Source: a bacterium
GTDB lineage: Bacteria > Patescibacteriota > Microgenomatia > Curtissbacterales > GWA2-41-24
Length of the DNA stretch: 64,000 nt
Direction of reading: 5' to 3'
NCBI GenBank assembly: GCA_021813945.1
Contig: JAKAJD010000001.1
Location: 9,744-73,743, forward strand
Below the pieces are notes generated by a model, which was not told the origin of the DNA, did not search any database, and saw only the letters and a program-made list of their open reading frames with translations. Both the position numbers and the translations under genes were made by a program. Shown piece after piece: positions 22,014 through 46,306 of this stretch. Within the stretch, counting starts at the first letter, position 1; the number at the start of each line of letters is the position of its first letter.

Positions 22014-23225
22014 ATGTCCAAACTGGAAAAATTCCTCCTTTTTGTAAACATAGCGATCTATCTTTCTATTGCAGTTTTTTCATTCGCTTATGTGGATCTC
22101 AATCTTACCTTAAGCCAAAACCGCTATATTCTGGGCTTCATTTCACAAATGCAATATTTAGGTTATTATAGTAGGCCGCAAGCCACATCCATCTATCTTC
22201 TCATGATTTTTGCGACATACGCGTTTTTTATTGCCAATTTAATTCTGTTTTTAAGGAAAAAAATTACAAAAAAATACCTGGTCTTATCGTCACTTACAAG
22301 CGTTATAATTTTGATCTTTGCGTACCCATACCTCTCCTCAGATATTTTTAACTACATATTTGATGCAAGAATAATATTACATTACCATTTAAGCCCATAT
22401 AGTCACAGAGCTTTAGACTTTCCACAAGATGACTGGATTAGGTTTATGCGTTGGACGCATCGATATTCTCCATACGGCCCTGTTTGGCTGTTTTTCTCGC
22501 TCATACCCTACACCCTAGGCTTAGGTAAATTCCTTCTAACTCTTTTAACTTTTAAAACTTTTATTTCTCTGTTTCACCTAGCGAATATTTACCTGATATA
22601 TCAAATTTTAAATTTTAAAAAAGATAATTTAAGGCTTACGGGAACAGCTCTTTACGCACTTAATCCACTTATTCTTACAGAAGGAATCATAAATGGGCAC
22701 AATGATGTAGTCCTGGCAACCTTTTTGCTACTACCGATTTATTTCTCGACTCGCAATAAAAATGTAAAATCAATTATTTCAATATTGACAGGTACACTCA
22801 TAAAATACATTCCCATCCTTAACTTTCCGTGGTTATTATTGCATATAAAAACAAAAAACTTTGGGCTTAAAAAGTTAATAATTGCTAACATTATCACAAT
22901 GGTTATCTTTACTTACATTTTTTCATCATTCAAAATTACTGTGCCATTCGTCTCATCAGGGGCTACTCAAGTGCAGTTTCAACCATGGTATCTATTCTGG
23001 ACACTGCCTTTAATTGCCCTTCTTTCAAATACCTGGCTCACAATTTTTTCAATCGCTGTAGCGCTTGGTGCAAGTTTAAGATATCTCCCATTCATTTATT
23101 ATGGAGACTGGAGCCATCAAGGTACTTTAGAGTTTATGACTATTGCAACCTTTGCACCTGCTTTTATAATGGGCATTATATTTTTGATATATAAAACCTT
23201 TTTAACTCACTCAAGTGACAAATAA
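22014..23225 (+). CDS. Polytopic membrane protein, possible GT-C-type glycosyltransferase
   Basis: About 11 TM helices. The conserved-looking loop is SSDIFNYIFDARI...QDDWIRFMRWTHRYSPYGPVWL. Confidence 0.5.
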   Translation: MSKLEKFLLFVNIAIYLSIAVFSFAYVDLNLTLSQNRYILGFISQMQYLGYYSRPQATSIYLLMIFATYAFFIANLILFLRKKITKKYLVLSSLTSVIILIFAYPYLSSDIFNYIFDARIILHYHLSPYSHRALDFPQDDWIRFMRWTHRYSPYGPVWLFFSLIPYTLGLGKFLLTLLTFKTFISLFHLANIYLIYQILNFKKDNLRLTGTALYALNPLILTEGIINGHNDVVLATFLLLPIYFSTRNKNVKSIISILTGTLIKYIPILNFPWLLLHIKTKNFGLKKLIIANIITMVIFTYIFSSFKITVPFVSSGATQVQFQPWYLFWTLPLIALLSNTWLTIFSIAVALGASLRYLPFIYYGDWSHQGTLEFMTIATFAPAFIMGIIFLIYKTFLTHSSDK

Positions 23226-25659
23226 AAATAGGACTTCAAAATTTTTCAAATCAACTTTTCCATTTGCAGTCATATTTGGTGTGACACTTCTTATTTTCTT
23301 TAAAATTTTCATAAAAGGGTTGTATCCAATTCCTGGTGATCTTCTTGTTTCTTTCTATTTCCCTTGGTACTCAGGCGGGTGGGTCGGTTATGACCCTTGG
23401 ACTACCCATAAAGAAATGCTTGGGGCAGATTCAATAAGGCAAATATATTTGTGGAAGGAGTTTGCTGCACATCAATTTTTATCTGGCCATTTTCCACTTT
23501 GGAATCCATTTACTTTTTCAGGCCAACCCCTCATAGCAAATTTTCAGTCTAGTGTTTTTTATCCTTTCAACATTTTTTATTTCTTTACCGACGCAAGAAA
23601 CGCTTGGATTTTACTTATAACAATTCAACCACTTTTAGCGGGAATTTTTATGTTTATTTGCCTGCGAAGTTTCAAATTGCCAAAAATTGCGGCACTTTTT
23701 GGCTCAATTACTTTTATGTTTTCAAGTTACTTTATAACTTGGATGGAGAATGGAAATATAAGCCATGGTTACCTTTGGCTTCCTTTTGCAATATTTGCCA
23801 TTAATCGATTTTTTGAAAAACATCAGATTAGATATCTGATCGCATTGGCTGTGACCATCACCCTTTCCATTTTTGCAGGCCATCCCCAAACAGTCATATA
23901 TATTGTTTTAGCTACCTCTTTATTTTTCTTTTTTAAAATTTACGAAGAGTCCAAAAATGCAAAACTTTTTTTGTATTATTGCATCTCTCTTTTGGGGGCA
24001 TTGCTAATCAGCTCAGTCCAGCTAATCCCTACATTGGCTTTTTACAAAATGTCTCCAATTCATCTTCCTTTCGCCAAAGAAGTATTTGACAGATCGATAA
24101 TGCCAGTTCAAAACTTAATCACCTTCTTTGCAAGTGACTTCTTTGGTCATCCGGCAAACAATAATTTTTGGAGCGCAAGCTACGGAGATTTTACCCCTTA
24201 TTTCGGGGTCATACCACTTATATTTTCACTTTGGGCAATATTTAAACTGAGGAGAACAAGATTCGTAAGATTTGCAGCTTTAACATCTTTATTTTTTATC
24301 TTCTCAGCAATCCAAGGGCCTATTACTTATCTGATAAAAAAACTACAAATACCTTTAGTAGACGCTACCTCTCCATCTAGATTCCTTTCAATAACAATAT
24401 TCTTTTTAATTATCTTGTCTGCCCTTGGCTTCTCTGATTTTTTACAGCATATCCAAACTAAAAAATATTTTACAAACTTTATAAAATTTTTGGCATTTTT
24501 GTTCCCAATATATATTGCGATGTGGGCTTTTACTGTATTCGGCAAAATCATATTAAAAAATGATCAAATTTGGCAAATTAATCTCTCTGTCTCACAACAC
24601 AATTTAGTTCTACCAACAGCTATGTTTTTATCAATTCCTGCAATATTGCTTCTACTCATATATGCAAAAAAATTAATAAAACCTTTCCCGGATAATATTT
24701 CCATAAAGATTGCGATCACGGCCATTTTCCTAGTTACAATATTTGGTGGCGTTTACTACACAAACAAATTTCTTCCGGTTGCTCCCAAAAAATTTATTTT
24801 TCCTGATCACCCTATTTTGACATGGCTTGAGCAGAATGCAGGTATCGATAGATTTTACGGAAGCCAGACTGCCCATATTGATTACAACTTTCCAACGCAT
24901 TATCAAATTTATGGAGTTGAAGGCTACGACACACTAAGACTCGAGCGTTACGCCCAGCTGCTAGCCTCTATTCCAACTGGCCAAGTGCCAAAAACTTACC
25001 TGCGATCAGATGGGACACTGCCAGATAGCAATGAGAATGTTAACAAAAAGAGAATTCTGGACCTTTTAGGCGTTAAATATATGCTTGATAAAGAGGATAA
25101 TCCAAAAACGGGTGCAGACTGGCATTACGACAGATTTCCGACAGATAAGCTAAAAGGCTTGGTACAGTACACCAGACCTCAAATATACTTGAGAGAAGAT
25201 GCTATACCACGGTTTTTCATGTCTACCAAATACACAGTTGCAAAATCGGATGAGGAAATCTTGAGTGATATTTATAACCAAAATTTCGATCTTAGAACTT
25301 TAATTTTAGAGCAAGAACCAAACATACCCGTTGATAACACTGAGTCCAATATAGTTATTCCTCAACTCTTAAACTACATCCCGGAAAGTTCTATCTTCAA
25401 AACTAATAACAGTTCAAATTCGCTTTTGTTTATCTCGGATGCTTACGACAGTGGCTGGAAAGCTTTTATAGATGGTAAAAAATCTCCAATATTACGGGCC
25501 GATTATGCCCTAAGAGCAGTAGCGGTTCCCAAAGGAGAGCACGAGGTGCAATTTAAATATGAGCCGGACTCTTTTAAAATTGGCTTTTATATCACTATCT
25601 TATCCACAATCGGACTTCTTGGAATTTGCGCATTTTCTATATCGAAGAAAAAATTCTGA
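23215..25659 (+). CDS. YfhO-like large membrane protein (GT-C-like, 814 aa)
   Basis: Polytopic N-terminal region plus a C-terminal domain ending GWKAFIDGKKSPILRADYALRAVAVPKGEHEVQFKYEP, which resembles the YfhO-family C-terminus. Confidence 0.6.
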   Translation: MTNKNRTSKFFKSTFPFAVIFGVTLLIFFKIFIKGLYPIPGDLLVSFYFPWYSGGWVGYDPWTTHKEMLGADSIRQIYLWKEFAAHQFLSGHFPLWNPFTFSGQPLIANFQSSVFYPFNIFYFFTDARNAWILLITIQPLLAGIFMFICLRSFKLPKIAALFGSITFMFSSYFITWMENGNISHGYLWLPFAIFAINRFFEKHQIRYLIALAVTITLSIFAGHPQTVIYIVLATSLFFFFKIYEESKNAKLFLYYCISLLGALLISSVQLIPTLAFYKMSPIHLPFAKEVFDRSIMPVQNLITFFASDFFGHPANNNFWSASYGDFTPYFGVIPLIFSLWAIFKLRRTRFVRFAALTSLFFIFSAIQGPITYLIKKLQIPLVDATSPSRFLSITIFFLIILSALGFSDFLQHIQTKKYFTNFIKFLAFLFPIYIAMWAFTVFGKIILKNDQIWQINLSVSQHNLVLPTAMFLSIPAILLLLIYAKKLIKPFPDNISIKIAITAIFLVTIFGGVYYTNKFLPVAPKKFIFPDHPILTWLEQNAGIDRFYGSQTAHIDYNFPTHYQIYGVEGYDTLRLERYAQLLASIPTGQVPKTYLRSDGTLPDSNENVNKKRILDLLGVKYMLDKEDNPKTGADWHYDRFPTDKLKGLVQYTRPQIYLREDAIPRFFMSTKYTVAKSDEEILSDIYNQNFDLRTLILEQEPNIPVDNTESNIVIPQLLNYIPESSIFKTNNSSNSLLFISDAYDSGWKAFIDGKKSPILRADYALRAVAVPKGEHEVQFKYEPDSFKIGFYITILSTIGLLGICAFSISKKKF

Positions 25660-27257
25660 TGAAAAAATATTTTTTTATCCTATTGGTAATAGCCGTACTA
25701 TCAATCTGGCCATTTTTCTCCAAAGGCTTTTACCAAAGCCACGATGGTGAATGGATGATAATTCGCTTCACTGCCTTTCACCAAACTTTAAGGGCTGGTA
25801 ATTTCCCTGTCAGATTTGTTGACCGCCTTAATAACAGTTACGGATATCCGGTAATCAATTTTTTATACCCACTGCCTTTTTATCTTTCAGAAATCCCAAA
25901 AATTTCAGGATTTGGATTTGTTGACAGTGTAAAAATAATCTTCGCATTCTCAACACTTATATCAGCAGCCGCGATGTTTTGGGCCCTTTCAATAGGTTTT
26001 TCGCCGACCGCCAGTTTAACCGGAGCAATCATTTATTTATTTATCCCTTATCGTTTTGTCGATCTCTATGTAAGAGGATCTATTGGCGAGAATTTAGCTT
26101 TTTCTGTATTGCCTCTTATATTAGGATCAATATTTCAAATATCAAAAGGCAAAAAAATATATTTTCCTCTTTTGGCTATTTTTATTGGCCTTTTAATTAC
26201 CTCCCACAACGTAATTGCAGCAATTTTTCTGCCAATATTTATTGTTTTGTCTTTTCTTTTAATAATGCACGACAGAGCTAAACTGCTAATATCCTACGCT
26301 TTGGGAATTTTATCCGCTGCCTTTTTTTGGTTTCCTGCGCTGTATGATCTCAAGTATGTGAAACTTTCGCAGATCAACGTATCAAACGTAAACGATCATT
26401 TAGTAAGCTTTTCAAGACTTATTATTCCATCATGGGGTTATGGATCAAGGCCAGTCGGTCATTTAGGGTTTTCACCGCAAATTGGAATTGTGGCTGTCGC
26501 AGTCCTACTTACTGCTTTATACATTCAGATCATTTCAAAAAAGAAAAATGTATCAATAAATTTCTTTTTAGTGATAACGACCGCATGCATTTTTTTACTG
26601 ACCACCTGGTCAAAAATAATTTGGAATACCATTCCAGCGATTAGTGTAATTCAGTTTCCCTGGAGACTGCTTTCCGTTATTGTATTTATCTCTTCTTTTT
26701 GTGCAGCGTTCGTTATTGATTCAAACAAAAGAAACAAAACATTATTGGCAACACTCCTAATATCAGCATCGGTTATATCAACAATCGTTTACACAAAACC
26801 CTCAGGCTTTGTTAACAGGGGAGAGGGTTACTATACAACAAACGAAGGTTCGACAACTGTATTGGACGAATACCTGCCTCTTTGGGTTCAGGAAAATCCT
26901 AAAGGTCATCCTAACCAAAAAATTGAAGTTGAAAACGGTAAATCAACTTTAACTCAAGTTGCTATAAAGCCTAATAATTACAAATTCACCCTTAACGCCT
27001 CAGAAGAAACAAAAATTAAAGTTAACACCATCTTTTTTCCTGGCTGGAAAGTTTTTGCAAATGGAAATCCTATTAAAATAGACTATAAAAATCCAGAAGG
27101 TTTAATAAAATTCAAATTGCCAAAAGGAAACTATGACGTTATAATCCGGTATACAAAGACTTTGCCACATCTCGTCTCCGAGATAGTATCGCTCTTTGCC
27201 GTTTTTTCGACGGGTCTGTACTTCTTTTTAATAAAATGGCGAAAACTAGGTTTTTAG
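25659..27257 (+). CDS. Polytopic membrane protein family with an N-terminal HDG-x-W...R...FPVRF motif and a YfhO-type C-terminal domain; paralog of 35048..36772
   Basis: Start MKKYFFILL (ATGA overlap with the upstream stop). HDGEWMIIRFTAFHQTLRAGNFPVRFVDRLNNSYGYPVINFLYPLPFY aligns with the 35048 paralog. The C-terminus is FFPGWKVFANGNPIKIDYKNPEGLIKFKLPKGNYDV. Confidence 0.55.
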   Translation: MKKYFFILLVIAVLSIWPFFSKGFYQSHDGEWMIIRFTAFHQTLRAGNFPVRFVDRLNNSYGYPVINFLYPLPFYLSEIPKISGFGFVDSVKIIFAFSTLISAAAMFWALSIGFSPTASLTGAIIYLFIPYRFVDLYVRGSIGENLAFSVLPLILGSIFQISKGKKIYFPLLAIFIGLLITSHNVIAAIFLPIFIVLSFLLIMHDRAKLLISYALGILSAAFFWFPALYDLKYVKLSQINVSNVNDHLVSFSRLIIPSWGYGSRPVGHLGFSPQIGIVAVAVLLTALYIQIISKKKNVSINFFLVITTACIFLLTTWSKIIWNTIPAISVIQFPWRLLSVIVFISSFCAAFVIDSNKRNKTLLATLLISASVISTIVYTKPSGFVNRGEGYYTTNEGSTTVLDEYLPLWVQENPKGHPNQKIEVENGKSTLTQVAIKPNNYKFTLNASEETKIKVNTIFFPGWKVFANGNPIKIDYKNPEGLIKFKLPKGNYDVIIRYTKTLPHLVSEIVSLFAVFSTGLYFFLIKWRKLGF

Positions 27258-28219
27258 TAACGGGCGGAGCGGGATTTATCGGCTCAGAAATAGTCAGGCA
27301 GCTTCTAGCCTCGGGGCACTCCGTACGCGTAGCAGACAATCTTTCTAAAAAAGACGTCCAAATAGACAGTCGAGCTGAATTTATAAAAGTAGATTTAACA
27401 GATAAAGAGCAAGCAAATGAAGCGTTTTTGGGAATCGATATTTGCATCAATGCTGCCGCCAAAATAGGGGGTATTGGATACTTTCACAAATTTCCTGCGA
27501 CGATTTTATCGGAAAATAATAAAATTTACTCATCCACATTTGAAGCTGCGGTTAAAAACAAAATCAAAAGAATGCTTTACATTTCTTCTTCAATGGTTTT
27601 TGAATCGGCAAAAAGCTTTCCCTCAAAAGAAGAGGACATTTACAAAATTCCGCCGCCAGTTTCCTCATACGGTTTTTCTAAACTATCTGGCGAGTGGTAT
27701 TGCCGTTCGTTTTGGGACCAATATAGATTGCCTTATACAATTTGTAGACCGTTCAACGCATACGGAATAAACGAATTTCCAGAACGGGAAATAGGCTACG
27801 CTCACGTCATCCCAGACCTTGTAAGAAAGATCTTAAGCGGCCAATACCCGCTTGAGCTTTTAGGTACCGGCCAGCAAACGAGATGTTTCACCCATGTTTC
27901 AGACATAGCAAACGGGGTAATAACAGCCTCTCTTCACAAAAACGCCCAAAATCAGGATTTCAATATTGGAACCGACAAAGAAATAAAAATGATTGATCTT
28001 GCCCAAAAAATCTGGCAACAGATGGAAATGAAAAAATCCTTTAAAGTTAAATTTGTCACGGGTTTCGAGTTTGACATAAAAAGAAGAGTCCCTAACGTTC
28101 AAAAAGCAAGGCAGCTAATGGGATGGGAACCTAAGGTTAAATTTGAAGAAGGCCTAAAGGAGGTTATTGAATGGCTAAAGCAACAAAAAAGCCAAGGCAA
28201 GTTTCAAACAAGCAAGTAG
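27236..28219 (+). CDS. NAD-dependent nucleotide-sugar epimerase/dehydratase (extended SDR)
   Basis: FLVTGGAGFIGSEIVRQLL and YGFSKLSGE (YxxxK). Length 327 aa. Confidence 0.75.
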   Translation: MAKTRFLVTGGAGFIGSEIVRQLLASGHSVRVADNLSKKDVQIDSRAEFIKVDLTDKEQANEAFLGIDICINAAAKIGGIGYFHKFPATILSENNKIYSSTFEAAVKNKIKRMLYISSSMVFESAKSFPSKEEDIYKIPPPVSSYGFSKLSGEWYCRSFWDQYRLPYTICRPFNAYGINEFPEREIGYAHVIPDLVRKILSGQYPLELLGTGQQTRCFTHVSDIANGVITASLHKNAQNQDFNIGTDKEIKMIDLAQKIWQQMEMKKSFKVKFVTGFEFDIKRRVPNVQKARQLMGWEPKVKFEEGLKEVIEWLKQQKSQGKFQTSK

Positions 28220-29496
28220 CTATTGTCGGAACGGGTCGTGTGGGCTTACCACTAGCTCTCTTTCTTGCGGAAAAAGGGCACACTGTTTATGGTTTGGATG
28301 TCGACGAAAATAAAATAGGAACCCTTAAAAAAGGCGAAATGCCCTTTTTAGAAGAAGGGGGATCGGATCTGTTAAAAAAACATGTTAACAAAAAATTCAT
28401 TCCAAGCTCTGATTTTTCAAACATATCAAAATCGAAAGTAATTATTCTTACGCTGGGAACCCCAGTCGATGAGAATATGAACCCATCGCTTGTGCAAATA
28501 GATAGGGCCTTGAAAACCGCCAGCAGGTATTTTAAAAACGACCAACTTCTAATTTTAAGATCTACAGTTTCTCCAGGTACTACAAACTACGTCAAATCAG
28601 TGATTAACGATTCAGGCAAATTTAAAGTCGGAATTAATTATTTTTTAGCTTTTTGCCCTGAAAGAATAGCCGAAGGTAAATCACTCAAAGAACTTGGAGA
28701 GATTCCTCAAATTGTAGGAGGGGTTGATCGCCAAAGTACTCAAAAAGCAGCGGAATTTTTTGCAAGTCTTGGCATAAAAGTTAATAAATCAGACGACATT
28801 TCCGCAGAACTTGCAAAGCTTTTTACAAATATGTATCGCTATATCAATTTTGGAATTTCCAATGAGTTCATGATTCTGGCAGGAAATTACAACAGAGATA
28901 TATACAAAATTGTCGAACTTGTAAACAAGGATTATAAAAGAGGTGGCTTAGCGCTTCCAGGGCTAACCGGAGGTCCATGCTTATTTAAAGATGGATTCTT
29001 CTTAATAAGCGATGTACCATTTTTAGATCTTATTGCAACAAGCTGGAAAATTAACGAATCAATTCCTCTGTTTTTAATAAATAAAATACGACAGAGAAGA
29101 AAGCTGGAAGGTAAAAAAGCTGTTGTGTTGGGTTTAGCGTTCAAAGCTGATATCGACGATATCAGAGAATCTCTTGCGTTTAAAGTTAAAAAAGCACTCG
29201 AAAGGGAGAGGGCACAGGTCTTTTTGCACGATCCATACATTAAAGATTACCAAAATAACTTGAATGAAACCCTAAAGGACGCTGATTTTGTCTTTATTGC
29301 AACCAACCATTCTTTTTATAAAAAGTTAGATTTTGAAAATATTAAAAAATTAGTTTCAAAAAATTGCGTTATTTGTGATGTTTGGAATATATTTAAAACA
29401 AATAAAATCATTTTCACAATAAAATCTTTAGAAAATATGGGGAATAAAAAATTTCAAGACACGGAAAGCGATTTGGAACACCCGGGCTTGATATAA
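28171..29496 (+). CDS. Nucleotide-sugar dehydrogenase (UDP-Glc / UDP-ManNAc dehydrogenase family)
   Basis: VAIVGTGRVGLPLALFLAEKGHTVYGLD Rossmann motif plus the catalytic Cys in GGPCLFKDG. Its ATG at 28171 overlaps the upstream gene by 49 nt. Confidence 0.75.
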   Translation: MAKATKKPRQVSNKQVAIVGTGRVGLPLALFLAEKGHTVYGLDVDENKIGTLKKGEMPFLEEGGSDLLKKHVNKKFIPSSDFSNISKSKVIILTLGTPVDENMNPSLVQIDRALKTASRYFKNDQLLILRSTVSPGTTNYVKSVINDSGKFKVGINYFLAFCPERIAEGKSLKELGEIPQIVGGVDRQSTQKAAEFFASLGIKVNKSDDISAELAKLFTNMYRYINFGISNEFMILAGNYNRDIYKIVELVNKDYKRGGLALPGLTGGPCLFKDGFFLISDVPFLDLIATSWKINESIPLFLINKIRQRRKLEGKKAVVLGLAFKADIDDIRESLAFKVKKALERERAQVFLHDPYIKDYQNNLNETLKDADFVFIATNHSFYKKLDFENIKKLVSKNCVICDVWNIFKTNKIIFTIKSLENMGNKKFQDTESDLEHPGLI

Positions 29497-29538
29497 GCTT
29501 ATTTTGACACTCCAAATTTTAAAAGTTAAAATTTTAAA

Positions 29539-30255
29539 ATGAAACTTTCTATAGTTATTCCTGTTTACAACGAGGGGCAAGTTATAAAAGAAACTTTAAC
29601 TAAGCTGGAATCTTCTCTGAAAACACCACACGAAGTTTTAATAGTTTACGATATGGATGAAGACACAACAGTGCCTATTGTAAAAAAATTGCAAAATGAC
29701 CTCAAAAACATAAAGCTTGTTAAAAATCTCTATGGTAAAGGTGCATTGAATGCTCTAAAAACTGGCCTTAAAAAATCACAAGGGGAAGCGGTTTGCATAA
29801 TGATGGCAGATTTAACAGACGACCCAAAAGTAATCGAAAAGATGTTCAATTTATATCAAAAAAATAAAGGTGTTGTTGCAGCATCAAGGTACATGAAAGG
29901 CGGCCATCAAATTGGTGGACCAAAATTTAAGCAACTGCTTTCGCGTACTGCCGGAATCAGTCTCCACTATCTCACCGGAATCGCGACACACGATGCAACA
30001 AACTCCTTTAAACTTTATCCTAAAAAGTTTCTTAAAGAAACAAAAATAGAATCAGACGGTGGTTTTGAATTAGGCATAGAATTAACTGTCAAAGCTTTCG
30101 CAAAAGGCTATAACATTTCAGAAGTTCCGACGACCTGGATATATTCGTCAAAGGAATCACGTTTTTATCTTAAAAAATGGTTACCAAAATATTTAAAATG
30201 GTATTTCTGGGCAATCACGCACAAATATCAATCGCAATCGATCAATAATTTTTAA
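29539..30255 (+). CDS. GT2 glycosyltransferase, Dpm1-like polyprenyl-phosphate sugar synthase
   Basis: LSIVIPVYNEGQVI, MADLTDDP, AASRYMKGG. Confidence 0.75.
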   Translation: MKLSIVIPVYNEGQVIKETLTKLESSLKTPHEVLIVYDMDEDTTVPIVKKLQNDLKNIKLVKNLYGKGALNALKTGLKKSQGEAVCIMMADLTDDPKVIEKMFNLYQKNKGVVAASRYMKGGHQIGGPKFKQLLSRTAGISLHYLTGIATHDATNSFKLYPKKFLKETKIESDGGFELGIELTVKAFAKGYNISEVPTTWIYSSKESRFYLKKWLPKYLKWYFWAITHKYQSQSINNF

Positions 30256-31697
30256 TGAAAAAAATGTTATTGGCTGCTGTTTTTCCAGCGATTGTTCTAA
30301 TTACGCTATTTATTTATAAACAAAGTTTAAGCTTTTATTTTTTTCAAGACGACTGGTTTGTGCTGGATACAATAAAAAACATTCACCTAAATAACATCTT
30401 TAGCATTTTTTCTGCAAGACAGGATGTTGTTTACTATAGACCTGTCGGAATGCAATTATTTTTCTTTTTAAGTAAGTCTTTATTCGGGTTAAATCCTATT
30501 AATTTTCATCTACTTTCCTTTTTCTTTCATATTTTAAACATATTTATGATAGGGTTAATCTCTTTTCAGATTTTCAGAAGCAAATTTGCGTCGGCCGTTT
30601 CATCCTTTTTTTATGCGGTAGCGTCTTTTCACTTTATGACACTCTCCTGGATATCATTAACTTGGAATAACATTGGAACTTTCTTTGTATTTTCGTCTAT
30701 TTATTTTTATCTAAAGTTTTCTTTATCCGAAAAGTTAATAGATTATTTTTTGGCTGTCAGTCTTTTTTTTGTAGCTTTATTCAGCACAGAGTTTGCAGCT
30801 CTTACACCAATAATAGCTGCCTTAATTTCTCTCCTTTCGCCAAATAAAATTAACTTTCGCGGTATTAAAAAAACTTTATTAATTTTAAGTCCACCGATAT
30901 TAGCAATCATCGTATATATTTCCTTTCGATTGACTCACTCCGCCATTCAAACGACTAGCGACTACAAGATCGTCATTAGCACAAAAATTATAAAAAATCT
31001 GATATGGTATTTCTTATGGCTTACTGGCGTACCACAAGAGCTTAAATTTAATTTGAGTATCTCACAGCTAAAAATCGCCCGAGCTTTTTTAAACGGTGCT
31101 GGATTTGAAATTTTACTTTTTTTCCTCTTTTGGTTAGGAATTATTATATTAGCGATTTTTTTACTCAAAAAAAACAAATCGCCTGCAAAATTAAATATTG
31201 TCGTTGCTCTCATATTTTTAATAGGTCTAATACCAGTTATATTTCTCCCGAACCACACATTTCCATATTATCTGAACATTTCCTCTTTAGGGCCCTTTTT
31301 ATTTATTGCCTTTCTTCTCAAAAAAAATGCCCGCAAAGGAAATGAAAAATTTTTTATTATCAATTATCTAATAATTATTATTTGGCTATTTTTATCTTTC
31401 ACAAACTATCGAATTAATGCTAAAACCAATTGGATTCCGGGCGAAGCTATTATTTCAAAAAAGATCACAGAAGACGCTTTGATCCAGTCAGCCAACAATT
31501 CAAACTATTCACCTGTAGTTATAGTAAGCGAAGATGCGGTCGGTACTGAGCAGTCATTAACAGGCCAAAGGGCCTTGCAAATCATACTTAATAATCCAAA
31601 TATTAAAACTTATGTCAGAAAGAGAGAGCAAGCGATAAATGACTACAAGATGGGCACCTTACCAAAAAACGCATACTACATTTTTTATTATCAATAA
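30255..31697 (+). CDS. Polytopic membrane protein, possible GT-C glycosyltransferase (FFQDDWFVLD first-loop motif)
   Basis: 480 aa with more than 10 TM helices. An acidic DD motif follows TM1. Confidence 0.5.
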   Translation: MKKMLLAAVFPAIVLITLFIYKQSLSFYFFQDDWFVLDTIKNIHLNNIFSIFSARQDVVYYRPVGMQLFFFLSKSLFGLNPINFHLLSFFFHILNIFMIGLISFQIFRSKFASAVSSFFYAVASFHFMTLSWISLTWNNIGTFFVFSSIYFYLKFSLSEKLIDYFLAVSLFFVALFSTEFAALTPIIAALISLLSPNKINFRGIKKTLLILSPPILAIIVYISFRLTHSAIQTTSDYKIVISTKIIKNLIWYFLWLTGVPQELKFNLSISQLKIARAFLNGAGFEILLFFLFWLGIIILAIFLLKKNKSPAKLNIVVALIFLIGLIPVIFLPNHTFPYYLNISSLGPFLFIAFLLKKNARKGNEKFFIINYLIIIIWLFLSFTNYRINAKTNWIPGEAIISKKITEDALIQSANNSNYSPVVIVSEDAVGTEQSLTGQRALQIILNNPNIKTYVRKREQAINDYKMGTLPKNAYYIFYYQ

Positions 31698-35051: not shown

Positions 35052-36772
35052 TAAAAAACACCGCAGTAGTAATTATTATATTTTCATTTGCAGTTTTAGT
35101 TTCAACACCTCTTCTAAAACCGGGCCTATATTCTGTGCACGACGATCAACAAATAGCTAGGCTTTTTGTCTACGATCAAGCCTTAAAAAATGGTCAATTT
35201 CCAGTCAGGTGGGTTAGCGGTCTAGGTTTCGGCTTTGGCTATCCGTTATTTATTTTCTACCCACCGCTTGTATATATGCTAGGTGAAGTTTTCCATCTGA
35301 TTGGATTCGGATACATAAACAGTGTAAAACTTGTCTTTTTTAGCGGAATTTTATTATCAGGCCTTTCGATGTACTTATTGGTAAAAGATCTATGGGGAAA
35401 ATTAGAAGGTACAATTAGTGCTTTATTTTATATGATTGTTCCATATCGCGCTCTCGATGTTTATGTTAGAGGAGCTTTAGCAGAATCTCTTGCCTTTGTT
35501 TGGCTTCCGGCAATATTGTGGTCATTTTTCCAACTCAGGCGGACTCAAAATGCTAAATACGTTTACCTCTCGGCTATGTTTTTAGCTCTTTTGATGATTA
35601 CCCACAACCTAATATTCCTCCCTTTTGCGTTAATTCTTGGCATCTATCTGGTTTTTCTGGTATTAACATCCCAGAAACGGACCATACTCACCAAGCAAAT
35701 CATATTATCTGGCATATTAGGAGCCGGATTATCGGCATTTTTCTGGGCACCCGCCCTGCTCGAAAAAAAATATACCATAGTGGACAGCCTCTTGTTGGTT
35801 AATTTAGCGGATTACAGAATTCACTTTGTATTTCCACAACAGCTTTGGAACTGGCCATGGGGGTTTGGAGGCTCTGCCGGGCTTGAATCAGGTATTTCGT
35901 TTAAGATCGGCAAATTGCATATTATTTTGGCGGCAGCGACTGTTTTAATTGCAATTACTAGAAAAATATTTTTAAAGACTAAAACTAAATTAAATACCGA
36001 GGTTGATAACTTAATAATTATCTTTTTTGTGCTCTTTTTGTTTTCAGCGTTTATGGCAACTTTTTACTCCAGATTTATCTGGAAAATCATCCCGCCGCTT
36101 GCTTATTTACAATTTCCCTGGAGATTTTTAACATTTACTGCGCTTTTTAGCTCCATTTTAGTGGGAGCTTTCATCTATTATTTAAGGCTCCCCATCATAA
36201 AAATTGTATCAGGATTCATTTTGGTGATTTTACTTCTTATTCCAAACTTAAAGTTATTTCAGCCTCAATTTTATAGGACCAACTTAACAGACAGTGTGGC
36301 CACCTCAAAAGAGGTCATAAGTTGGGATGTTTCACTTTCATCTTTCGAGTACGTCCCAAAGGGTGTTGATATTTACAAAACAAGCTTCGGTACGAATATG
36401 ATAAAAATCGACAAATCCGAAATTCCAACTCAGCCGATTGAGATATTAAGTGGAACTCCACAAATTCAAATGTTAAAAACTACACCCGACAAAATACAAT
36501 TTCAATTAACTGCCGATTCTCCCTCAAGACTGAAAGCAAATATCTTCAACTTTCCGGGATGGTCAGTTGTAATCGATGGTAATCAAACATTAATCAATGA
36601 TGAAAATCCGCTTAAACTCATTACCTTTAACGTGCCAAAGGGCAGCCATTCGGTTAAAATAGAATTTGGAAACACTCCCATAAGATTAGTAGCAAATTAC
36701 ATAAGTTTGCTATCAATTTTGTGCTTAGCCATATTTGTATTCCGAAAATGGAAGATCCTGAGTACTCACTAG
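35048..36772 (+). CDS. Polytopic membrane protein, paralog of 25659..27257 (HD...FPVRW family with a YfhO-type C-terminus)
   Basis: HDDQQIARLFVYDQALKNGQFPVRWVSGLGFGFGYPLFIFYPPLVY. The C-terminus is NFPGWSVVIDGNQTLINDENPLKLITFNVPKGSHSV. Confidence 0.55.
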   Translation: MIKNTAVVIIIFSFAVLVSTPLLKPGLYSVHDDQQIARLFVYDQALKNGQFPVRWVSGLGFGFGYPLFIFYPPLVYMLGEVFHLIGFGYINSVKLVFFSGILLSGLSMYLLVKDLWGKLEGTISALFYMIVPYRALDVYVRGALAESLAFVWLPAILWSFFQLRRTQNAKYVYLSAMFLALLMITHNLIFLPFALILGIYLVFLVLTSQKRTILTKQIILSGILGAGLSAFFWAPALLEKKYTIVDSLLLVNLADYRIHFVFPQQLWNWPWGFGGSAGLESGISFKIGKLHIILAAATVLIAITRKIFLKTKTKLNTEVDNLIIIFFVLFLFSAFMATFYSRFIWKIIPPLAYLQFPWRFLTFTALFSSILVGAFIYYLRLPIIKIVSGFILVILLLIPNLKLFQPQFYRTNLTDSVATSKEVISWDVSLSSFEYVPKGVDIYKTSFGTNMIKIDKSEIPTQPIEILSGTPQIQMLKTTPDKIQFQLTADSPSRLKANIFNFPGWSVVIDGNQTLINDENPLKLITFNVPKGSHSVKIEFGNTPIRLVANYISLLSILCLAIFVFRKWKILSTH

Positions 36773-38217
36773 ATATAGAACTGATAAAAAGAAAAGCTAT
36801 ATCTGGTGTAGTAACATTTACACTGCGAACTTTTTTTATACAGGCGTTCACTTTTTTCGCGACCTTTATCTTAACCGTTCTTTTGGCTCCTTCAATTTTC
36901 GGAATTTTCTTTTTAGTTTCTGCAATTTTAAACTTCTTTGTTTATTTTTCCGATGTTGGATTGGCAGCTGCATTAATTCAAAAAAAAGAAGAGCCTTCAA
37001 GGAAAGATCTTGTTTCAACGTTCACTATTCAACAGACAATCATTCTTTCACTGGTGGTAATCGGCCTTATTTTTTCTTCCACCATAGCCGGATTTTACAA
37101 GCTAGACTCTAGCGGACTGCTTCTTTTAAGAGTCCTTATCATATCTCTTATCTTTTCTTCATTAAAAACTGTGCCGTCTATACTTTTGGAAAGACACTTG
37201 CACTTTTCAAAACTAGTGATTCCTCAAATTGCAGAAAATATAGTCTTCTATTTAACCGCGCTTATCCTGGCATATTATCACTTCCAAATAGCCAGTTTTA
37301 CCTGGGCAGTACTCTTGCGTGGGATTGTGGGCCTTGTCGCTATTTACATCTTGTCTCCATGGATGCCAGGAATTGGTATAGACAAACAAAGTGCCAAAAA
37401 ATTAACCTCTTTTGGTGTTCCTTTTCAAATAAATAGCGTATTGGCTTTATTTAAAGACGATCTTTTAACAGTCTTTTTAGGTAAAATTCTTACTTTCTCT
37501 CAGGTGGGATACGTTGGGTGGGCACAAAAATGGGCCTTCGTTCCTCTAAGATTTTTTATGGATAATGTTAATAAAGTGACCTTTCCCGCATATTCAAGAC
37601 TTCAGGAACATAAAGATGAGTTGGCGAAAGCCATAGAAAAATCCGTCTTTTTCGTCACCTTTTTGGTTTACCCATCAACCTTCGGGTTAATGGCTGTTGC
37701 CCCTCAAATAGTAGCTAGTGTGCCGAATTATGGAAAATGGGAACCAGCTTTACCGCTTTTATACCTATTTTCTATAAATGCCATTTTTTCTGCAGTATCG
37801 ACAACTTTTACTAATACTTTATTTGCAGTGGGTCATCCCAAAATCGTTTTAAAATTTATGACTTTTTGGACAGCTGCAACTTGGCTTCTGACAGTCCCTT
37901 TAGTTTTTAAATTTGGATACATTGGTGTGGGTATCGCATCGGCAGCCGTTGCAGCTTCATCGGTAGTCACTGTCTACTTTGTAAAGAAAGAACTTCAAAT
38001 ATCTGTGGGGAAAAATATAGTTGGGCCTCTTTTCACCGCAACCATAATGTTCTTCTTGGTTAAATCAGTAGAGGCTGCTTTACCAAAAACTATTCTAAGT
38101 GTAGTTTTCTCAATTATTTTTGGTGCTATAATTTATTTTATCATCTCGCTCTCAATCTTTAAAAAGCACTTAATTGAAGATTCAAAAATCATCATTAAAT
38201 CTCTTTTAAAGCCATGA
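36748..38217 (+). CDS. Wzx-like oligosaccharide/polysaccharide flippase (MOP superfamily)
   Basis: 12-14 TM helices with SDVGLAAALIQKKE and FGVPFQINSVLALFKDDLLTVFLG, typical of polysaccharide-biosynthesis-protein flippases. The probable start is the second Met, MEDPEY; the tracked ORF starts at 36721. Confidence 0.7.
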   Translation: MEDPEYSLDIELIKRKAISGVVTFTLRTFFIQAFTFFATFILTVLLAPSIFGIFFLVSAILNFFVYFSDVGLAAALIQKKEEPSRKDLVSTFTIQQTIILSLVVIGLIFSSTIAGFYKLDSSGLLLLRVLIISLIFSSLKTVPSILLERHLHFSKLVIPQIAENIVFYLTALILAYYHFQIASFTWAVLLRGIVGLVAIYILSPWMPGIGIDKQSAKKLTSFGVPFQINSVLALFKDDLLTVFLGKILTFSQVGYVGWAQKWAFVPLRFFMDNVNKVTFPAYSRLQEHKDELAKAIEKSVFFVTFLVYPSTFGLMAVAPQIVASVPNYGKWEPALPLLYLFSINAIFSAVSTTFTNTLFAVGHPKIVLKFMTFWTAATWLLTVPLVFKFGYIGVGIASAAVAASSVVTVYFVKKELQISVGKNIVGPLFTATIMFFLVKSVEAALPKTILSVVFSIIFGAIIYFIISLSIFKKHLIEDSKIIIKSLLKP

Positions 38218-39125: not shown

Positions 39126-39126
39126 T

Positions 39127-39756: not shown

Positions 39757-39832
39757 CTGGAATTTACAGTTTAATTGTGTAAGTAAGAACTGTCAATTAC
39801 CTCTTTAAATCTGAATATTTTATAATTGATAG

Positions 39833-41278
39833 GTGAAACTTAGCAAAGTTTTAAAATCCTACTGGCCATTTTTTCTTATTTTATTAATCTCTGCAATTTT
39901 GAGATTTTGGCGCCTAGAACAACTAACGACTTTTGGAGGAGATCAGGGATATGATTTTTTGATAGCCAAGGGAATACTCCAAGGAAAATTTACACTACTC
40001 GGCCCAAAAATTGGCCCATACAACAATTTTGGCAACCTGTATCTAGGTCCAGCCTACTATTATTTAATAGCGCCATGGCTCTTTCTATTTCAACTTGATC
40101 CGATAGGTCCTGCCTTTTTCACAGTTATGACTGCACTTGCTACGATATCTCTTATTTTTATTATTGCAAACCAATTTTTATCAAAAAGGATTGCAATACT
40201 CGCATCGGCAATATATGGGCTTAACGCTATACTGATTGAACAATCACGGGCATCATCAAATCCTCACTTAATACCTTTTTTCGCTGCCGTTAGTGTCTAT
40301 TCTTATTTGAAAACATCACAAGATAAATCAAAATCCATCTTATGGCCCCTCTTGGCGGGTTTTTCTGTAGGTATTGCATTTCAACTTCACTATTTAGCTA
40401 TTTCACTATTGATTGTGATTTTAATTTTCAATCTTCTAAATTCAAAATACAAAGCCATCATATTAGTATTCATCGGCCTTATGTTAGCCTTGGGCGGGCA
40501 AATATTATTTGAGTTCAGGCATAATTTTTTTGTAACAAATCTGTTCCTAATTCAGATGCATCAGGGAAAAGTTCTCTCGCTGGCAACAGTTTTAAAAAAC
40601 ATTAATTCATCAGCCAGATTGCTTACCAGTGCTTTTATTTTTTCCCCAATATTAATTTTTATATTGTTTAATAAAAATCTACTCAAAAAACAATTAATCA
40701 CTTTTTTATTAACTTCAACAATTCTTGGATTTTTCCTTGTTGTTATTTATCCTGGGAACCCGCAACCTCACTATTTTGCTCCAATCTATGTCAGCGTAAT
40801 ATTGCTAATATCGACGATTTTTTCATCTTTTCTTGATCCGAAACAAAATTTCTTTATAAAATTTGCTGTTATGGTAATTTTGACCATTTATTTTTTGATT
40901 AATATCTCAAGTTACCATTTGCTCAGAAAAAACGGCTATACAATGCCTGATGGATGGAACTTAACCGGAATTAAATTTGCCTCAAAAGCCATTGCAAATG
41001 ATGTTGACAACGAAAGAACCTTTAATGTTGCAGCTACCCTAGACGGCGATACGAGGGCTATGCCCTACAGATATATGTTATCAGTTTACGGAAAAACTCC
41101 CCTGGGCGTAGAAAAATATCCTCAAGCACAAGTTATCTATCTCGTCTCAAGAGATTCATTGGATGAAATAAAAAATTATTCTGTATGGGAAATCGCCAGT
41201 TTTTGGCCTTATAATATTAGCAAGATTGCAGATGTTCAAAATGGTATTAGGGTTTACAAATTAACAAAAACAAATTGA
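39833..41278 (+). CDS. Polytopic GT-C-type membrane glycosyltransferase, paralog of 18719..20227
   Basis: GTG start 6 nt after TATAAT (39821-39826). FGGDQGYDFLIAKGILQGKFTLLGPKIGPYNNFGNLYLGPAYYY. Confidence 0.6.
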   Translation: MKLSKVLKSYWPFFLILLISAILRFWRLEQLTTFGGDQGYDFLIAKGILQGKFTLLGPKIGPYNNFGNLYLGPAYYYLIAPWLFLFQLDPIGPAFFTVMTALATISLIFIIANQFLSKRIAILASAIYGLNAILIEQSRASSNPHLIPFFAAVSVYSYLKTSQDKSKSILWPLLAGFSVGIAFQLHYLAISLLIVILIFNLLNSKYKAIILVFIGLMLALGGQILFEFRHNFFVTNLFLIQMHQGKVLSLATVLKNINSSARLLTSAFIFSPILIFILFNKNLLKKQLITFLLTSTILGFFLVVIYPGNPQPHYFAPIYVSVILLISTIFSSFLDPKQNFFIKFAVMVILTIYFLINISSYHLLRKNGYTMPDGWNLTGIKFASKAIANDVDNERTFNVAATLDGDTRAMPYRYMLSVYGKTPLGVEKYPQAQVIYLVSRDSLDEIKNYSVWEIASFWPYNISKIADVQNGIRVYKLTKTN

Positions 41279-42949: not shown

Positions 42950-44004
42950 AAATTGGCTTCTTTAGCCCTTATTTAGATACATTCGGTGGTGGGGAAAGAT
43001 ACATGCTTGAACTTGCGTCCCACCTTTCACAAAGCCAAAATAACAAGGTAGATATTTTTTGGGATGATAATGCCATAAAAGCACCACTTTCAAAATTTCT
43101 TAAAATAGATCTTTCCAAAACTAATTTCATACAAAACATCTTTGCCAACAGAACACAGGCCTCAAAATTAATGAGTACCAAAAAATATGATTTGCTTTTC
43201 GTTCTATCTGACGGGAGCGTCCCGCTATCATTTGCAAAAAAGAACATTCTTCACTTTCAAGTGCCGTTTAATTTTTCGCATCCTGATTTTAAAACAAAAA
43301 TAAAATTGGCAAAAATAAAATACCTCATTTGTAATTCCGAGTTCACAAAAAACTTTATAGACCAAAGCTTTTTAGTAAAATCGAAAGTCATTTACCCACC
43401 AGTCGATGTAAAATCGATAAAACCACTCCCTAAACAAAACTTAATTCTTTCTGTCGGCAGATTCAGCCAAAACCAACTTCATCCCAAGAAGCAAGAAGTT
43501 TTAATAGAGGTATTTAGGGAACTATATAAAAAAGCTCCATTGTGGAAGTTACTTCTAATTGGACAAGCAAAAAGGGAAGATTCAAAATACGTCAGAAAAC
43601 TAAGGAAAATTAGCCAAGGGTATGCAATTAAAATTATTGAAAACCTTGAGGTTGAAAAATTGAGGAAGTTATACGGCCAAGCATCAATCTACTGGCATGC
43701 AACTGGATATGGAGAGGATGAAAACAAAAACCCCGAAAGAATGGAGCACTTTGGCATTTCCACAGTTGAGGCATCTGCCGCCGGAGCTATCCCCGTTGTA
43801 ATAGGTAAAGGTGGACAAAAAGAGATTGTAGAGAACGGAAAAACTGGCTATTTATGGACTACAAAAACTCAGCTGTTCGAAAAAACTTTAGAACTTTTAA
43901 ATAGTCCTCAATTACTCGAAAAGCTATCGAAAAACGCTATAAAAAACAGCCGTAGATTTAGCAGAGAAAAATTCTTTTCGGAATATGAAAAAATTATTTA
44001 CTAA
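42946..44004 (+). CDS. GT4 (GT-B, group 1) glycosyltransferase
   Basis: C-terminal E-x7-E region FGISTVEASAAGAIPVVIGKGGQKEIVENGKTGYLW. Confidence 0.75.
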   Translation: MKIGFFSPYLDTFGGGERYMLELASHLSQSQNNKVDIFWDDNAIKAPLSKFLKIDLSKTNFIQNIFANRTQASKLMSTKKYDLLFVLSDGSVPLSFAKKNILHFQVPFNFSHPDFKTKIKLAKIKYLICNSEFTKNFIDQSFLVKSKVIYPPVDVKSIKPLPKQNLILSVGRFSQNQLHPKKQEVLIEVFRELYKKAPLWKLLLIGQAKREDSKYVRKLRKISQGYAIKIIENLEVEKLRKLYGQASIYWHATGYGEDENKNPERMEHFGISTVEASAAGAIPVVIGKGGQKEIVENGKTGYLWTTKTQLFEKTLELLNSPQLLEKLSKNAIKNSRRFSREKFFSEYEKIIY

Positions 44005-46306
44005 CTTCAAAATTTCTATTCTTCCAATTTTAATCATTGCTTTATTTTTTTCGACCGAGCTTATCCATGGAAGAGTCCCAATACCGGCAGACTCCCTAAT
44101 TGGGCTTTATCATCCTTTTCGGGACAACTCATATTTGGGCTTCGCAGAAGAACATTTCCCGACGAAAAATCCTTTAATTACCGATCCGGTATTGCAAACA
44201 TACCCATGGCGTTTTCTTGTAGTTAATAATCTAAAAAATTTCAGTCTTCCACTATGGAATCCTTACAGCTTTTCTGGCCAGCCGCTTCTTGCCAATGTCC
44301 AGTCGGCAACATTTCAGATTATTAATTTACTCTATCTAAAAACACCTTTTAATTTTGTTTGGGTCTTGGGAGTGATTATAGCTCCACTTTTAACATCACT
44401 CTTTACATTCTTCTTTTTAAGGTCATTAAAAATCTCACAAACTGCCTCAGCATTTTCCTCATTTATATTGCCTTTCACTGGATTCTTTACCGCATGGCTG
44501 GCATGGGGAACTGTCATAACAACAGCGATGTGGCTACCTCTAATTCTTTACTGTGTAAACAAACTAAATGAAAAATGGTCGGCAAGATTTTTTATCCTAC
44601 TTACATTTTCTTCTTTCCAGACAATAGTATCTGGTCATTGGCAAACTGCCTTTTATGTTATGTTATCATCCGCAATTTATTTAATTTATAAATCCATCAG
44701 TTCAAAATCTCTAAAGCTTTTTTCCATAGTTACTTCAGGTCTTATCTTAGGGGCAATGATAAGCTCAATACAAATAATTCCGTCTCTGGAGTTTATTAAC
44801 TTATCCAATCGTGGCCTAGATCAAGCGTATTTTGCAGGAAGAAGGGATTGGTTTATTCCTCTTCAGAATTTAGCCCAACTTCTTGCACCAGATTTTTTCG
44901 GAAATCCCACAACCTATAACTACTGGGGTATTTGGAATTACGCTGAATTTGTAAGCTACATCGGGTTGGTACCCTTATTTTTTGCACTTATCTCTGTATT
45001 TAAAAAGAATTCATACATCAAGTTTTTTTGGTTTATGATAGCCTTATCACTATTTTTAGCTTTAGAAAATCCAATTTCTAAATTACCTTACACTTTAAAC
45101 TTGCCGTTAATCGCCTCAATGCAACCCTCAAGAATTATTTTCCTTCTAGATTTTGCACTATCAGTACTTTGTGCCTTCGGTATGGACTATTTTTTGGAAG
45201 AAAAATTCAAAAAAAAATTTGTACTTCCGGCCTTATTGATGTTTCTAATAATTATTTCCTTAATATTATTAACTAAATTTGCCAGTCAGATTTTTCCGTC
45301 AGTAGAAAACCTCGCCCCTTCTTACACCGCCTTTAGAAATTTGCTTTACCCTTTACTTTTTTCCGCATCAATTTTTCTGATAATACTTCTAAAAGTTACG
45401 AAAACTACAAGGAATTTAATGGTGGCAATAATTATTTTGATAACTGTTCTCGATCTTTTTAAATTTGCTAACAAATTCACACCATTTTCAAACTTTTCCA
45501 TTATTTTTCCCAAAACAGAAACCACTAATTTTTTAATGAACCAGAAAAAGCCTTTTAGGATTTTAGAAACAGATCGTAGAATTTTAAACGGCAACATTTC
45601 TAGCGTTTATCAAATTGAACAAGTATCAGGCTATGATCCTCTATATCTCAAATCATACGGCCAACTTGTAGCCTCATGGGATGCAGCGGCTTTACGTTCT
45701 TCAGGATCTTTTAACCGGATAGTCACGCCTCAAAATTACAATTTACCACTCACAAATTTTATGAATGTTAAGTATTTGCTAAGTTTTGACGATATTCAAA
45801 ACGACAATTTATCAAAAATCTTTGAAGAGGGTCAAACAAAAATTTATGAAAACAAAAATGTGTTGCCAAGAACATACTTTGTCGAAAAAGTAACTAAAGT
45901 TGAAAACCAGAATCAAGAGCTGAGCCAAATTACTAGTAAAAATTTCGATTTTAGTAACCTCGCTGTTTCTCGAGAATTTCAAATGGAAGGAAAATCAAAA
46001 GGGACTGCTAATATAATTTTCTATGCCGACCAAAAACTTCAAATAGAAACTAAAACTCAAGAAAACTTGCCACTGATAATAAGTAATGTTAAGTATCCCG
46101 GTTGGAATGCTTTTATCGATGGGAGACCAACAAAACTTTATGAGGCCAACTTTATGTTTCAGTCAATTATAGTACCCCCAGGCGAACATATAATTTTATT
46201 AAGTTACATGCCCAAATCGTTTACTTACGGTTTCTACTTAACAGCTCTATCAGTATTTGTAACAATATGTATTGGAGGATTCCTGTGGAAAAAAGGGTAT
46301 CGGTAA
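43985..46306 (+). CDS. YfhO-like large membrane protein (GT-C-like, 773 aa)
   Basis: Its N-terminus (IPADSLIGLYHPF...WNPYSFSGQPLLANVQSATFQ) aligns with ORF 23215 (IPGDLLVSFYFPW...WNPFTFSGQPLIANFQSSVFY). The C-terminus is KYPGWNAFIDGRPTKLYEANFMFQSIIVPPGEHII. Confidence 0.6.
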   Translation: MKKLFTNFKISILPILIIALFFSTELIHGRVPIPADSLIGLYHPFRDNSYLGFAEEHFPTKNPLITDPVLQTYPWRFLVVNNLKNFSLPLWNPYSFSGQPLLANVQSATFQIINLLYLKTPFNFVWVLGVIIAPLLTSLFTFFFLRSLKISQTASAFSSFILPFTGFFTAWLAWGTVITTAMWLPLILYCVNKLNEKWSARFFILLTFSSFQTIVSGHWQTAFYVMLSSAIYLIYKSISSKSLKLFSIVTSGLILGAMISSIQIIPSLEFINLSNRGLDQAYFAGRRDWFIPLQNLAQLLAPDFFGNPTTYNYWGIWNYAEFVSYIGLVPLFFALISVFKKNSYIKFFWFMIALSLFLALENPISKLPYTLNLPLIASMQPSRIIFLLDFALSVLCAFGMDYFLEEKFKKKFVLPALLMFLIIISLILLTKFASQIFPSVENLAPSYTAFRNLLYPLLFSASIFLIILLKVTKTTRNLMVAIIILITVLDLFKFANKFTPFSNFSIIFPKTETTNFLMNQKKPFRILETDRRILNGNISSVYQIEQVSGYDPLYLKSYGQLVASWDAAALRSSGSFNRIVTPQNYNLPLTNFMNVKYLLSFDDIQNDNLSKIFEEGQTKIYENKNVLPRTYFVEKVTKVENQNQELSQITSKNFDFSNLAVSREFQMEGKSKGTANIIFYADQKLQIETKTQENLPLIISNVKYPGWNAFIDGRPTKLYEANFMFQSIIVPPGEHIILLSYMPKSFTYGFYLTALSVFVTICIGGFLWKKGYR

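Follow-up and report, generated by a model that had tools for sequence, protein, structure and literature searches.

How do two families of membrane proteins come to carry the same motif at their C-terminal ends, and was this part inherited together with the rest of the protein or acquired on its own? This question is raised by a gene cluster for cell-surface sugars in an uncultivated bacterium of Candidatus Curtissbacteria (candidate phyla radiation, CPR), within a stretch of 64,000 nucleotides (contig JAKAJD010000001.1, positions 9,744 to 73,743) which we call the window. An original prediction had pointed out four open reading frames (ORFs) starting at 23215, 25659, 35048 and 43985, and all four are present at these places. 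Two of them encode long YfhO-type proteins, named here Y1 (23215..25659, + strand, 814 amino acids (aa)) and Y2 (43985..46306, + strand, 773 aa), and the other two encode compact proteins with the signature HD...FPVRW, named P1 (25659..27257, + strand, 532 aa, ATG start) and P2 (35048..36772, + strand, 574 aa, GTG start). The members of each pair are related over their full length (30 % identity between Y1 and Y2, 31 % between P1 and P2), the start sites of P1 and P2 are the same in identical database proteins, and several close homologues, about 52-60 % identical, bear the NCBI name Curtissbacteria. We favor, with moderate confidence, the view that all four are GT-C membrane glycosyltransferases of a single YfhO/PTPS_related lineage, which exists in a long and a compact form and has obtained its whole architecture by common descent, with a beta-sandwich that may lie near the acceptor site.

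The shared motif is found at 25453-25542 in Y1, 27042-27134 in P1, 36557-36649 in P2 and 46100-46189 in Y2, and the corresponding regular expression matches these four ORFs only when the whole 64-kb window is translated in six frames. A hidden Markov model (HMM) built from the C-terminal parts of both families recovered the four ORFs with E values of 2e-25 to 5e-38 (Y1 2e-25, P1 4e-26), the next best of the 109 ORFs being found at 0.11. By the motif and HMM scans the segment is absent from the nine GT-C paralogues of the PMT_2 type and from the other membrane proteins of the window. When profiles of 64 P2-type and 62 Y2-type sequences were compared with hhalign, the sole significant alignment joined residues 469-571 of P2 and 671-771 of Y2 (probability 98.6-98.8 %, E 1.2e-16 and 1.3e-15; score 139 over 99 columns at E 1e-16), a profile similarity that extends beyond the short motif. 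Taken by themselves, the last 130 residues of P1 and P2 match positions 753-825 of the Pfam YfhO model (PF09586) with E values of 7.5e-5 (P1, 21.7 bits) and 2.6e-3 (P2, 16.6 bits), and the isolated C-termini of Y1 and Y2 match the same stretch with 2e-14 (Y1, positions 770-835) and 1.2e-8 (Y2), the P1 and P2 matches falling within the last 80 positions of the model. With the PTPS_related model (PF10131) none of the four isolated C-termini gave a match even at E values up to 10, and among the NCBIfam models those of the streptococcal PgfM1 and PgfM2 are matched by the C-termini of Y1 and Y2 only far below threshold. Regular expression, HMM, hhalign, the Pfam match in register and the structure models described below are five independent tests which concur that the shared motif is more than chance, confirming its presence in all four proteins.

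A combined profile of the module, searched against 1.84 billion representative proteins, returned 44,920 proteins at E<=1e-3 and 7,994 at E<=1e-10. Over 178 domain copies taken from the best 150 of the 44,920 proteins the signature reads [YF]-P(94 %)-G(92 %)-W(100 %)-x-[AV]-x-[VI]-D(90 %)-G(73 %) ... N(71 %) ... P(74 %)-x-G(100 %)-x-H(92 %), and since it is held over these copies the motif noticed originally is a true family signature. P-type and Y-type sandwiches form distinct subtypes, which are about 15-24 % identical. Every full-length protein among the best 150 matches possesses a P-type or a Y-type core. As candidates for stand-alone modules we considered 83 proteins shorter than 400 aa among the 149 newly returned of these 150, and rejected them: those read, among them four whose N-termini are odd (P0303, P0342, P0365 and P0381), seem to be YfhO-type proteins that are present as a C-terminal fragment or were called from an internal start, as judged from the proteins, their contigs not having been checked. 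At the other extreme P0241-P0244, P0246, P0255, P0256, P0289 and others are 1,100-3,300 aa long and contain two GT-C cores and 2-4 tandem module copies, being either fusions or merged gene calls, and P0286 and P0272 contain two sandwich copies back to back. In the PDB neither the single proteins nor three profiles found a sequence match. The shared module is already contained in the Pfam YfhO model and is implicit in the database annotation of P-type proteins; we found no paper treating it as a separate domain and no separate database entry.

The structure predictions were then compared. In the AlphaFold (AF2) models of P2 (pLDDT 85, pTM 0.89) and Y2 (pLDDT 89, pTM 0.90) the module folds into a beta-sandwich (about 90 residues), after which come a terminal membrane helix and a basic tail, and such basic tails are present at the C-terminal end of all four proteins of the window. 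The predicted strands of P2 (442-444, 450-452, 464-468, 472-479, 482-489, 493-500, 505-509, 512-514, 524-529 and 532-540) and of Y2 (659-662, 674-681, 684-691, 695-702, 707-711, 714-716, 719-721, 725-730 and 733-741) follow each other in the same order with a constant offset of 201-202 residues, and both runs end in the terminal helix. In P2 the predicted extracytoplasmic sandwich, which is delimited by the model strands and by hhalign against the Y family, comprises residues 442-543 (36371..36676, + strand), and the membrane helix, which hhalign places opposite the Y2 helix, comprises residues 544-569 (36677..36754, + strand) and precedes the basic tail RKWKILSTH. The Y2 model has the extracytoplasmic sandwich at residues 659-743 (45959..46213, + strand) and the helix at 744-772 (46214..46300, + strand). 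For Y1 the C-terminal HMM, Pfam YfhO and the motif place the module at 25300..25656 (+ strand), with the sandwich at about residues 696-793 and the membrane helix after it, and for P1 the C-terminal HMM and Pfam YfhO place it at 26910..27254 (+ strand), with the sandwich at about residues 418-509, again followed by a membrane helix. The motif residues of P2 include P503, G504, W505, D510, G511, N520, P530, G532 and H534, and in the models the D-G and P-x-G-x-H residues are located at beta-hairpin turns. Foldseek found as local matches of the sandwich only accessory beta-sandwich domains of glycoside hydrolases (2rdy, 6tvk, GH30).

The Y2 model has a loop of about residues 499-743 between the helices 476-498 and 744-772, which carries in addition an alpha/beta part of approximately 160 residues, and the loop of P2 (about residues 403-543) consists of a short helical linker and the sandwich. 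In B. subtilis YfhO the last two helices are separated by a large extracellular loop (PMC5836110). From this topology and the basic tails, which would lie in the cytoplasm, we therefore take the sandwich as the membrane-proximal end of the outside loop. The models thus depict the module as membrane-tethered and not as a free soluble C-terminus. The soluble end domain of about 100 aa that had been postulated is real insofar as a sandwich of about 90 residues exists, but it is closed by a terminal membrane helix instead of ending freely. That both families share a common extracytoplasmic C-terminal module of the YfhO type is borne out by hhalign, Pfam and the models.

To which family do the whole proteins belong? 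Y1 and Y2 pass the PF09586 cut-off of 28.5 bits with 76.6 bits (E 2e-21) and 61.8 bits (E 5.6e-17), all 62 of the 62 Y2-type homologues match YfhO, and the Y2 model fits the YfhO trait of many membrane helices with a large outside loop before the last one; judged by these sequence matches both are ordinary members of the YfhO family. The whole proteins P1 and P2 gave no match to Pfam YfhO at E<=1. P2 matches PF10131 with an E value of 0.0018 and 17.3 bits, which is below the cut-off of 26.4, over profile positions 2-321; P1 had no match to PF10131 in our local Pfam copy, and for the database protein P0299, identical to P1, a match to PF10131.16 is precomputed. Among 64 homologues of P2, 43 match PF10131 (best 4.6e-11), several of them above the cut-off, 16 match PMT_2, 5 YfhO and 4 STT3. 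The PF10131 matches are confined to positions 1 to about 320-346 of the 621-position model, the rest of which is never matched, and on the YfhO model the P-type proteins mostly cover positions 750-835. The orthologues of P1 have precomputed matches to PF10131, to PF09586, to both or to neither, and a few are named "YfhO family protein" by NCBI. The tentative equation of the HD...FPVRW family with the 'PTPS-related' family was therefore right in part: 43 of 64 homologues match, but these matches cover only about the N-terminal half of the model and P2 itself stays below the cut-off. On these sequence comparisons the P family seems best described as a compact YfhO/PTPS_related-like GT-C lineage that is a full member of neither Pfam family.

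The membrane cores had been taken as unrelated. The models of P2 and Y2, however, match STT3, PglB, AglB, AftD, ArnT, Emb and Pmt with a Foldseek probability of 1.00, so that all four proteins are predicted to have the GT-C fold (class A), P1 and Y1 through their 30-31 % full-length identity to P2 and Y2. PF10131 belongs to the GT-C clan CL0111 (PMC7801869). In enzymes of class A the N-terminal module of seven helices is conserved and holds the catalytic acid in its first outside loop, and the C-terminal module varies and supplies most of the acceptor contacts (PMC13503287). The first loop contains one or more conserved acidic residues and two helices (PMC13503287, PMC7801869). In the P family H31 and D32 are invariant, D33 is present in at least 90 % and the first-loop helices are at 35-47 and 73-84; in the Y family D36 is invariant and the corresponding helices are at 35-40 and 72-84. 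For the conserved acidic residues of the first loop we infer a catalytic role. Over the whole homologue alignment the invariant residues of P2 are H31, D32, P52, R54, Q355, F356, P357, W358 and R359.

With the strong C-terminal match removed, hhalign aligned residues 1-430 of the P profile with 1-500 of the Y profile at a local E value of 7.6e-6 (probability 84 %, score 51 over 167 columns) and in global mode at 2.8e-8 (probability 93.8 %), and the first halves of the membrane regions alone at 9.2e-7 (probability 91 %), with reversed-profile controls at 0.05-0.1. The alignment is collinear from residue 1 and brings invariant residues of both families into shared columns: the Asp just after helix 1 (H-D-D in P, P-A-D in Y), F-P-x-R/K and P-L-F/W, further W-L-P-L-I-L, a conserved His and P-x-L-E. 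A match of Q-x-P-x-R falls into a low-confidence part of the alignment and is a lead only. Single database proteins connect the two families as well. The YfhO homologue P0236 matches PF10131 at 1.9e-9, and residues 56-411 of the P-type protein P0289 match the YfhO profile over 55-401 with 63.5 bits while the overlapping residues 70-432 match PF10131 over 1-346 with 104 bits, so that a single core exceeds the curated thresholds of PF10131 and PF09586 alike. The local N-terminal HMMs of P and Y also cross-match (P0317, P0357 and P0370). The same GT-C fold, the collinear first halves above the reversed controls and the passing of the YfhO cut-off by P0289 contradict the claim of unrelated N-terminal membrane regions.

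The simplest history would thus be common descent of the whole architecture and not a graft onto unrelated scaffolds. In the long form, represented by Y1 and Y2, the sandwich is preceded by an additional alpha/beta sub-domain (about 160 residues), and in the compact form, represented by P1 and P2, the outside loop is cut down to a short helical linker and the sandwich. The original prediction had concluded that a module was grafted onto different transmembrane scaffolds, and this conclusion was not supported, for the cores are related, both have the GT-C fold and their N-terminal halves are collinear.

A number of results nevertheless weigh against descent of the whole, and several of them are what would be expected if a cassette of sandwich and terminal helix had moved between GT-C cores of the YfhO type and of the PMT_2/PTPS_related type as a portable unit for binding an acceptor or carrier. 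The C-terminal similarity (139 over 99 columns, E 1e-16) is far greater than that of the cores (51 over 167 columns). The P core is closer to the PMT_2 paralogues of the window, which have no module (E 1.3e-8), than to the Y core (7.6e-6). The variable halves of the cores have no detectable similarity: the second half of the membrane region gave E 0.0044 against 0.025 for the reversed control, which is not significant, and its best local alignment does not keep the register of the collinear one. Both findings, the closeness to PMT_2 and the dissimilar second halves, agree with the general plan of class A, in which the N-terminal module is conserved and the C-terminal one varies (PMC13503287). 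On PF10131 the P-type proteins cover no more than profile positions 1-320, and on YfhO mostly 750-835. Moreover, the P2 and Y2 modules were compared by strand order and offset, and our searches found no YfhO-type structure and no biochemical study of the module domain. The similarities of core and module are discordant, and an old domain transfer is therefore conceivable. We nonetheless regard such a transfer as unlikely. Position and topology of the module agree between the two families, the cores align collinearly with common invariant motifs, the P0289 core passes the YfhO cut-off over profile 55-401, and the P- and Y-type sandwiches form well-separated subtypes (about 15-24 % identical) that bear no trace of recent exchange. 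No other core type was found among the best 150 matches, and none of the nine PMT_2 paralogues of the window carries the module.

A role of the sandwich can be proposed from the enzyme class. Cytoplasmic GT2 enzymes would load sugars onto polyprenyl phosphate, the lipid-linked sugar would be flipped, and the GT-C enzymes would then transfer the sugar to surface acceptors on the outer face. A comparable scheme is known from the CsbB/GtcA/YfhO systems (PMC5836110, PMC8035078). The sandwich, anchored at the membrane surface by its own helix, would belong to the variable module and may help to build or gate the acceptor site beside the catalytic first outside loop. By analogy an acceptor-binding role of the sandwich appears plausible, and S. 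aureus YfhO has been suggested to possess extracellular domains that bind carbohydrates (PMC8035078).

One further point speaks against this picture: the position of the motif residues D-G and P-x-G at hairpin turns of the models would fit a purely structural role as well as one in binding. The sandwich would then staple the last helix to the core or pair two GT-C subunits and recognize no substrate. In the models the hairpin turns are occupied by D-G and P-x-G-x-H, and an assembly role is also compatible with the overlapping Y1 and P1 genes, an arrangement that recurs in three other Curtissbacteria contigs and could reflect a heteromeric pair. GT-C enzymes such as Pmt1-Pmt2 and EmbA-EmbB act as dimers, and the dimeric Pmt and Emb complexes are among the Foldseek matches. 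We consider a structural role without recognition to be a serious but unlikely alternative: an invariant Trp and near-invariant His and Asn over 178 copies are also typical of sugar-binding sites, the sandwich resembles accessory domains of glycoside hydrolases (2rdy, 6tvk, GH30), and P2 and Y2 have no partner of the other type. Little credence can be given to a more far-reaching proposal in which sandwich and helix form an independently evolving module for recognition or pairing and the coupled genes Y1 and P1 would encode a heteromeric complex of two GT-C enzymes held together by their modules, by analogy with Pmt1-Pmt2 or EmbA-EmbB. Finally, a chance or convergent short motif without homology, for which only the weak pairwise BLAST matches of single sequences speak (E 3e-6 to 0.01 in a four-sequence database), is practically inconceivable and already refuted by the profile, Pfam, structure and HMM results, namely profile-profile E values of 1e-15 to 1e-16, the independent curated Pfam profile matched in register, the identical strand order in both models and a gap of more than 24 orders of magnitude between the four ORFs and the 105 others in the HMM search.

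Our preferred reading, a single GT-C lineage with a long and a compact form, can be set beside the known systems. With the YfhO family (PF09586: B. subtilis and S. aureus YfhO, L. monocytogenes Lmo1079, streptococcal PgtC2, PgfM1 and PgfM2) Y1 and Y2 share the predicted GT-C fold, the outside loop and the C-terminal sandwich with its helix (model positions about 750-835). P1 and P2 share the C-terminal part, some of their relatives the core too, but they lack about 200 residues of the loop and lie below the family cut-off. The characterized YfhO members are from Firmicutes and attach sugars to teichoic acids or to protein regions rich in Ser/Thr (PMC5836110, PMC8035078, PMC12041528). Sugar transfer from C55-P-sugar to a surface polymer or protein is a trait of that family; here it is putative and deduced from the gene context (GT2, GT2-GtrA and flippase). 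PTPS_related is a family of unknown function of the GT-C clan CL0111, of which the core of the P family matches positions 1-320; positions 321-621 are unmatched by the P family, whose C-terminal module matches YfhO instead.

A similar case may be 'component 27' of Durairaj et al. 2023, a group of bacterial YfhO-annotated proteins which superposes poorly on true YfhO and is linked to STT3/PglB via GT39-like proteins (PMC10584680). Judged by its description, it resembles the P family in being a GT-C family that is 'YfhO-like but not YfhO'; its median length is 665 aa, and proteins of the P family have 530-580 aa. Among solved structures, GT-C class A enzymes (STT3/PglB/AglB, AftD, ArnT, EmbA/B/C and Pmt) match the P2 and Y2 models best. 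In PglB, STT3 and ArnT the outside domain has a free end, whereas the module here is, according to the models, closed by a further membrane helix.

The Pfam YfhO "domain" can be divided into a GT-C core and, as a second piece, the terminal sandwich with its helix. This second piece is carried by a very large number of proteins of about 530-580 aa, most of them without a name and here chiefly from Curtissbacteria and other uncultivated CPR bacteria. Their cores are labelled PTPS_related, YfhO, both or nothing, and a domain entry of its own would tidy the annotation. The compact P-type protein represents a minimal YfhO-like enzyme whose loop is almost only the sandwich and would be a convenient structure target in a family without a solved member. 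Otherwise the relationship is an expected one inside a known superfamily, and the enzyme class to which this biology belongs is already known.

The four genes are surrounded by genes which fit the proposed pathway. The Y1 stop codon and the P1 ATG share one nucleotide (TGATG at 25657-25661). Upstream of Y1 lies a gene for a polytopic membrane protein of 403 aa (22014..23225, + strand) without a local Pfam match, whose positional counterparts in three other Curtissbacteria contigs belong to PF26314 (MptA_B_family, a newer Pfam family), the orthology being taken from position only. Downstream of P1 sugar-activation genes are found by Pfam at 27236..30255 (+ strand), encoding an NAD epimerase/dehydratase, a UDP-glucose/GDP-mannose-type dehydrogenase and a small GT2, and their order is kept beside P1 orthologues. 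In the three contigs, where the P1 orthologues are 53-56 % identical, the conserved order is MptA_B-like, YfhO (about 770-806 aa), P1-type (about 530 aa), epimerase, UDP-sugar dehydrogenase and GT2, the GT2 gene following the dehydrogenase directly in two of the three and after one extra unannotated gene in the third. In all three the end of YfhO and the start of the P1-type gene have the same coordinate and thus share one base. Judged from the sequences, this recurrent one-base overlap suggests translational coupling of two GT-C enzymes, and the conserved order around Y1 and P1 suggests one common pathway in which they possibly act together.

The GTG start of P2 overlaps the stop codon of the upstream PMT_2 gene by 4 nucleotides, and directly after P2 follows a Wzx/MurJ-type polysaccharide flippase (36721..38217, + strand; PF13440 E 1.6e-49, PF01943 and PF03023), a neighborhood that was found again. 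The gene at 17488-18708 joins a GT2 catalytic domain and a membrane domain of the GtrA/DPMS type; the fusion product is likely a polyprenyl-phosphate sugar synthase and could supply donors to the downstream GT-C enzymes. The locus also contains small GT2 enzymes and a GT4.

The nine PMT_2-type GT-C paralogues are located within 64 kb at 18719-20227, 33390-35051, 39833-41278 and 50821-60488, the last region comprising six of them in an uninterrupted head-to-tail array. Counting Y1, Y2, P1, P2 and the MptA_B-like gene, at least 14 GT-C-type membrane proteins are predicted in the window, an expansion which is striking for a genome that is likely small (the longest contigs with these proteins have about 1 Mb). 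Two further polytopic membrane proteins, at 30255-31697 (+ strand, 480 aa) and 31706-33337 (- strand, 543 aa), have neither a Pfam match nor the C-terminal module and are possibly further divergent GT-C or polymerase-like proteins. Two genes within the island are not related to glycans, namely a fusion of a cytidylyltransferase-like domain with DUF359 at 47956-49020 (- strand) and a PolB-type 3'-5' exonuclease-like gene at 50069-50743 (+ strand).

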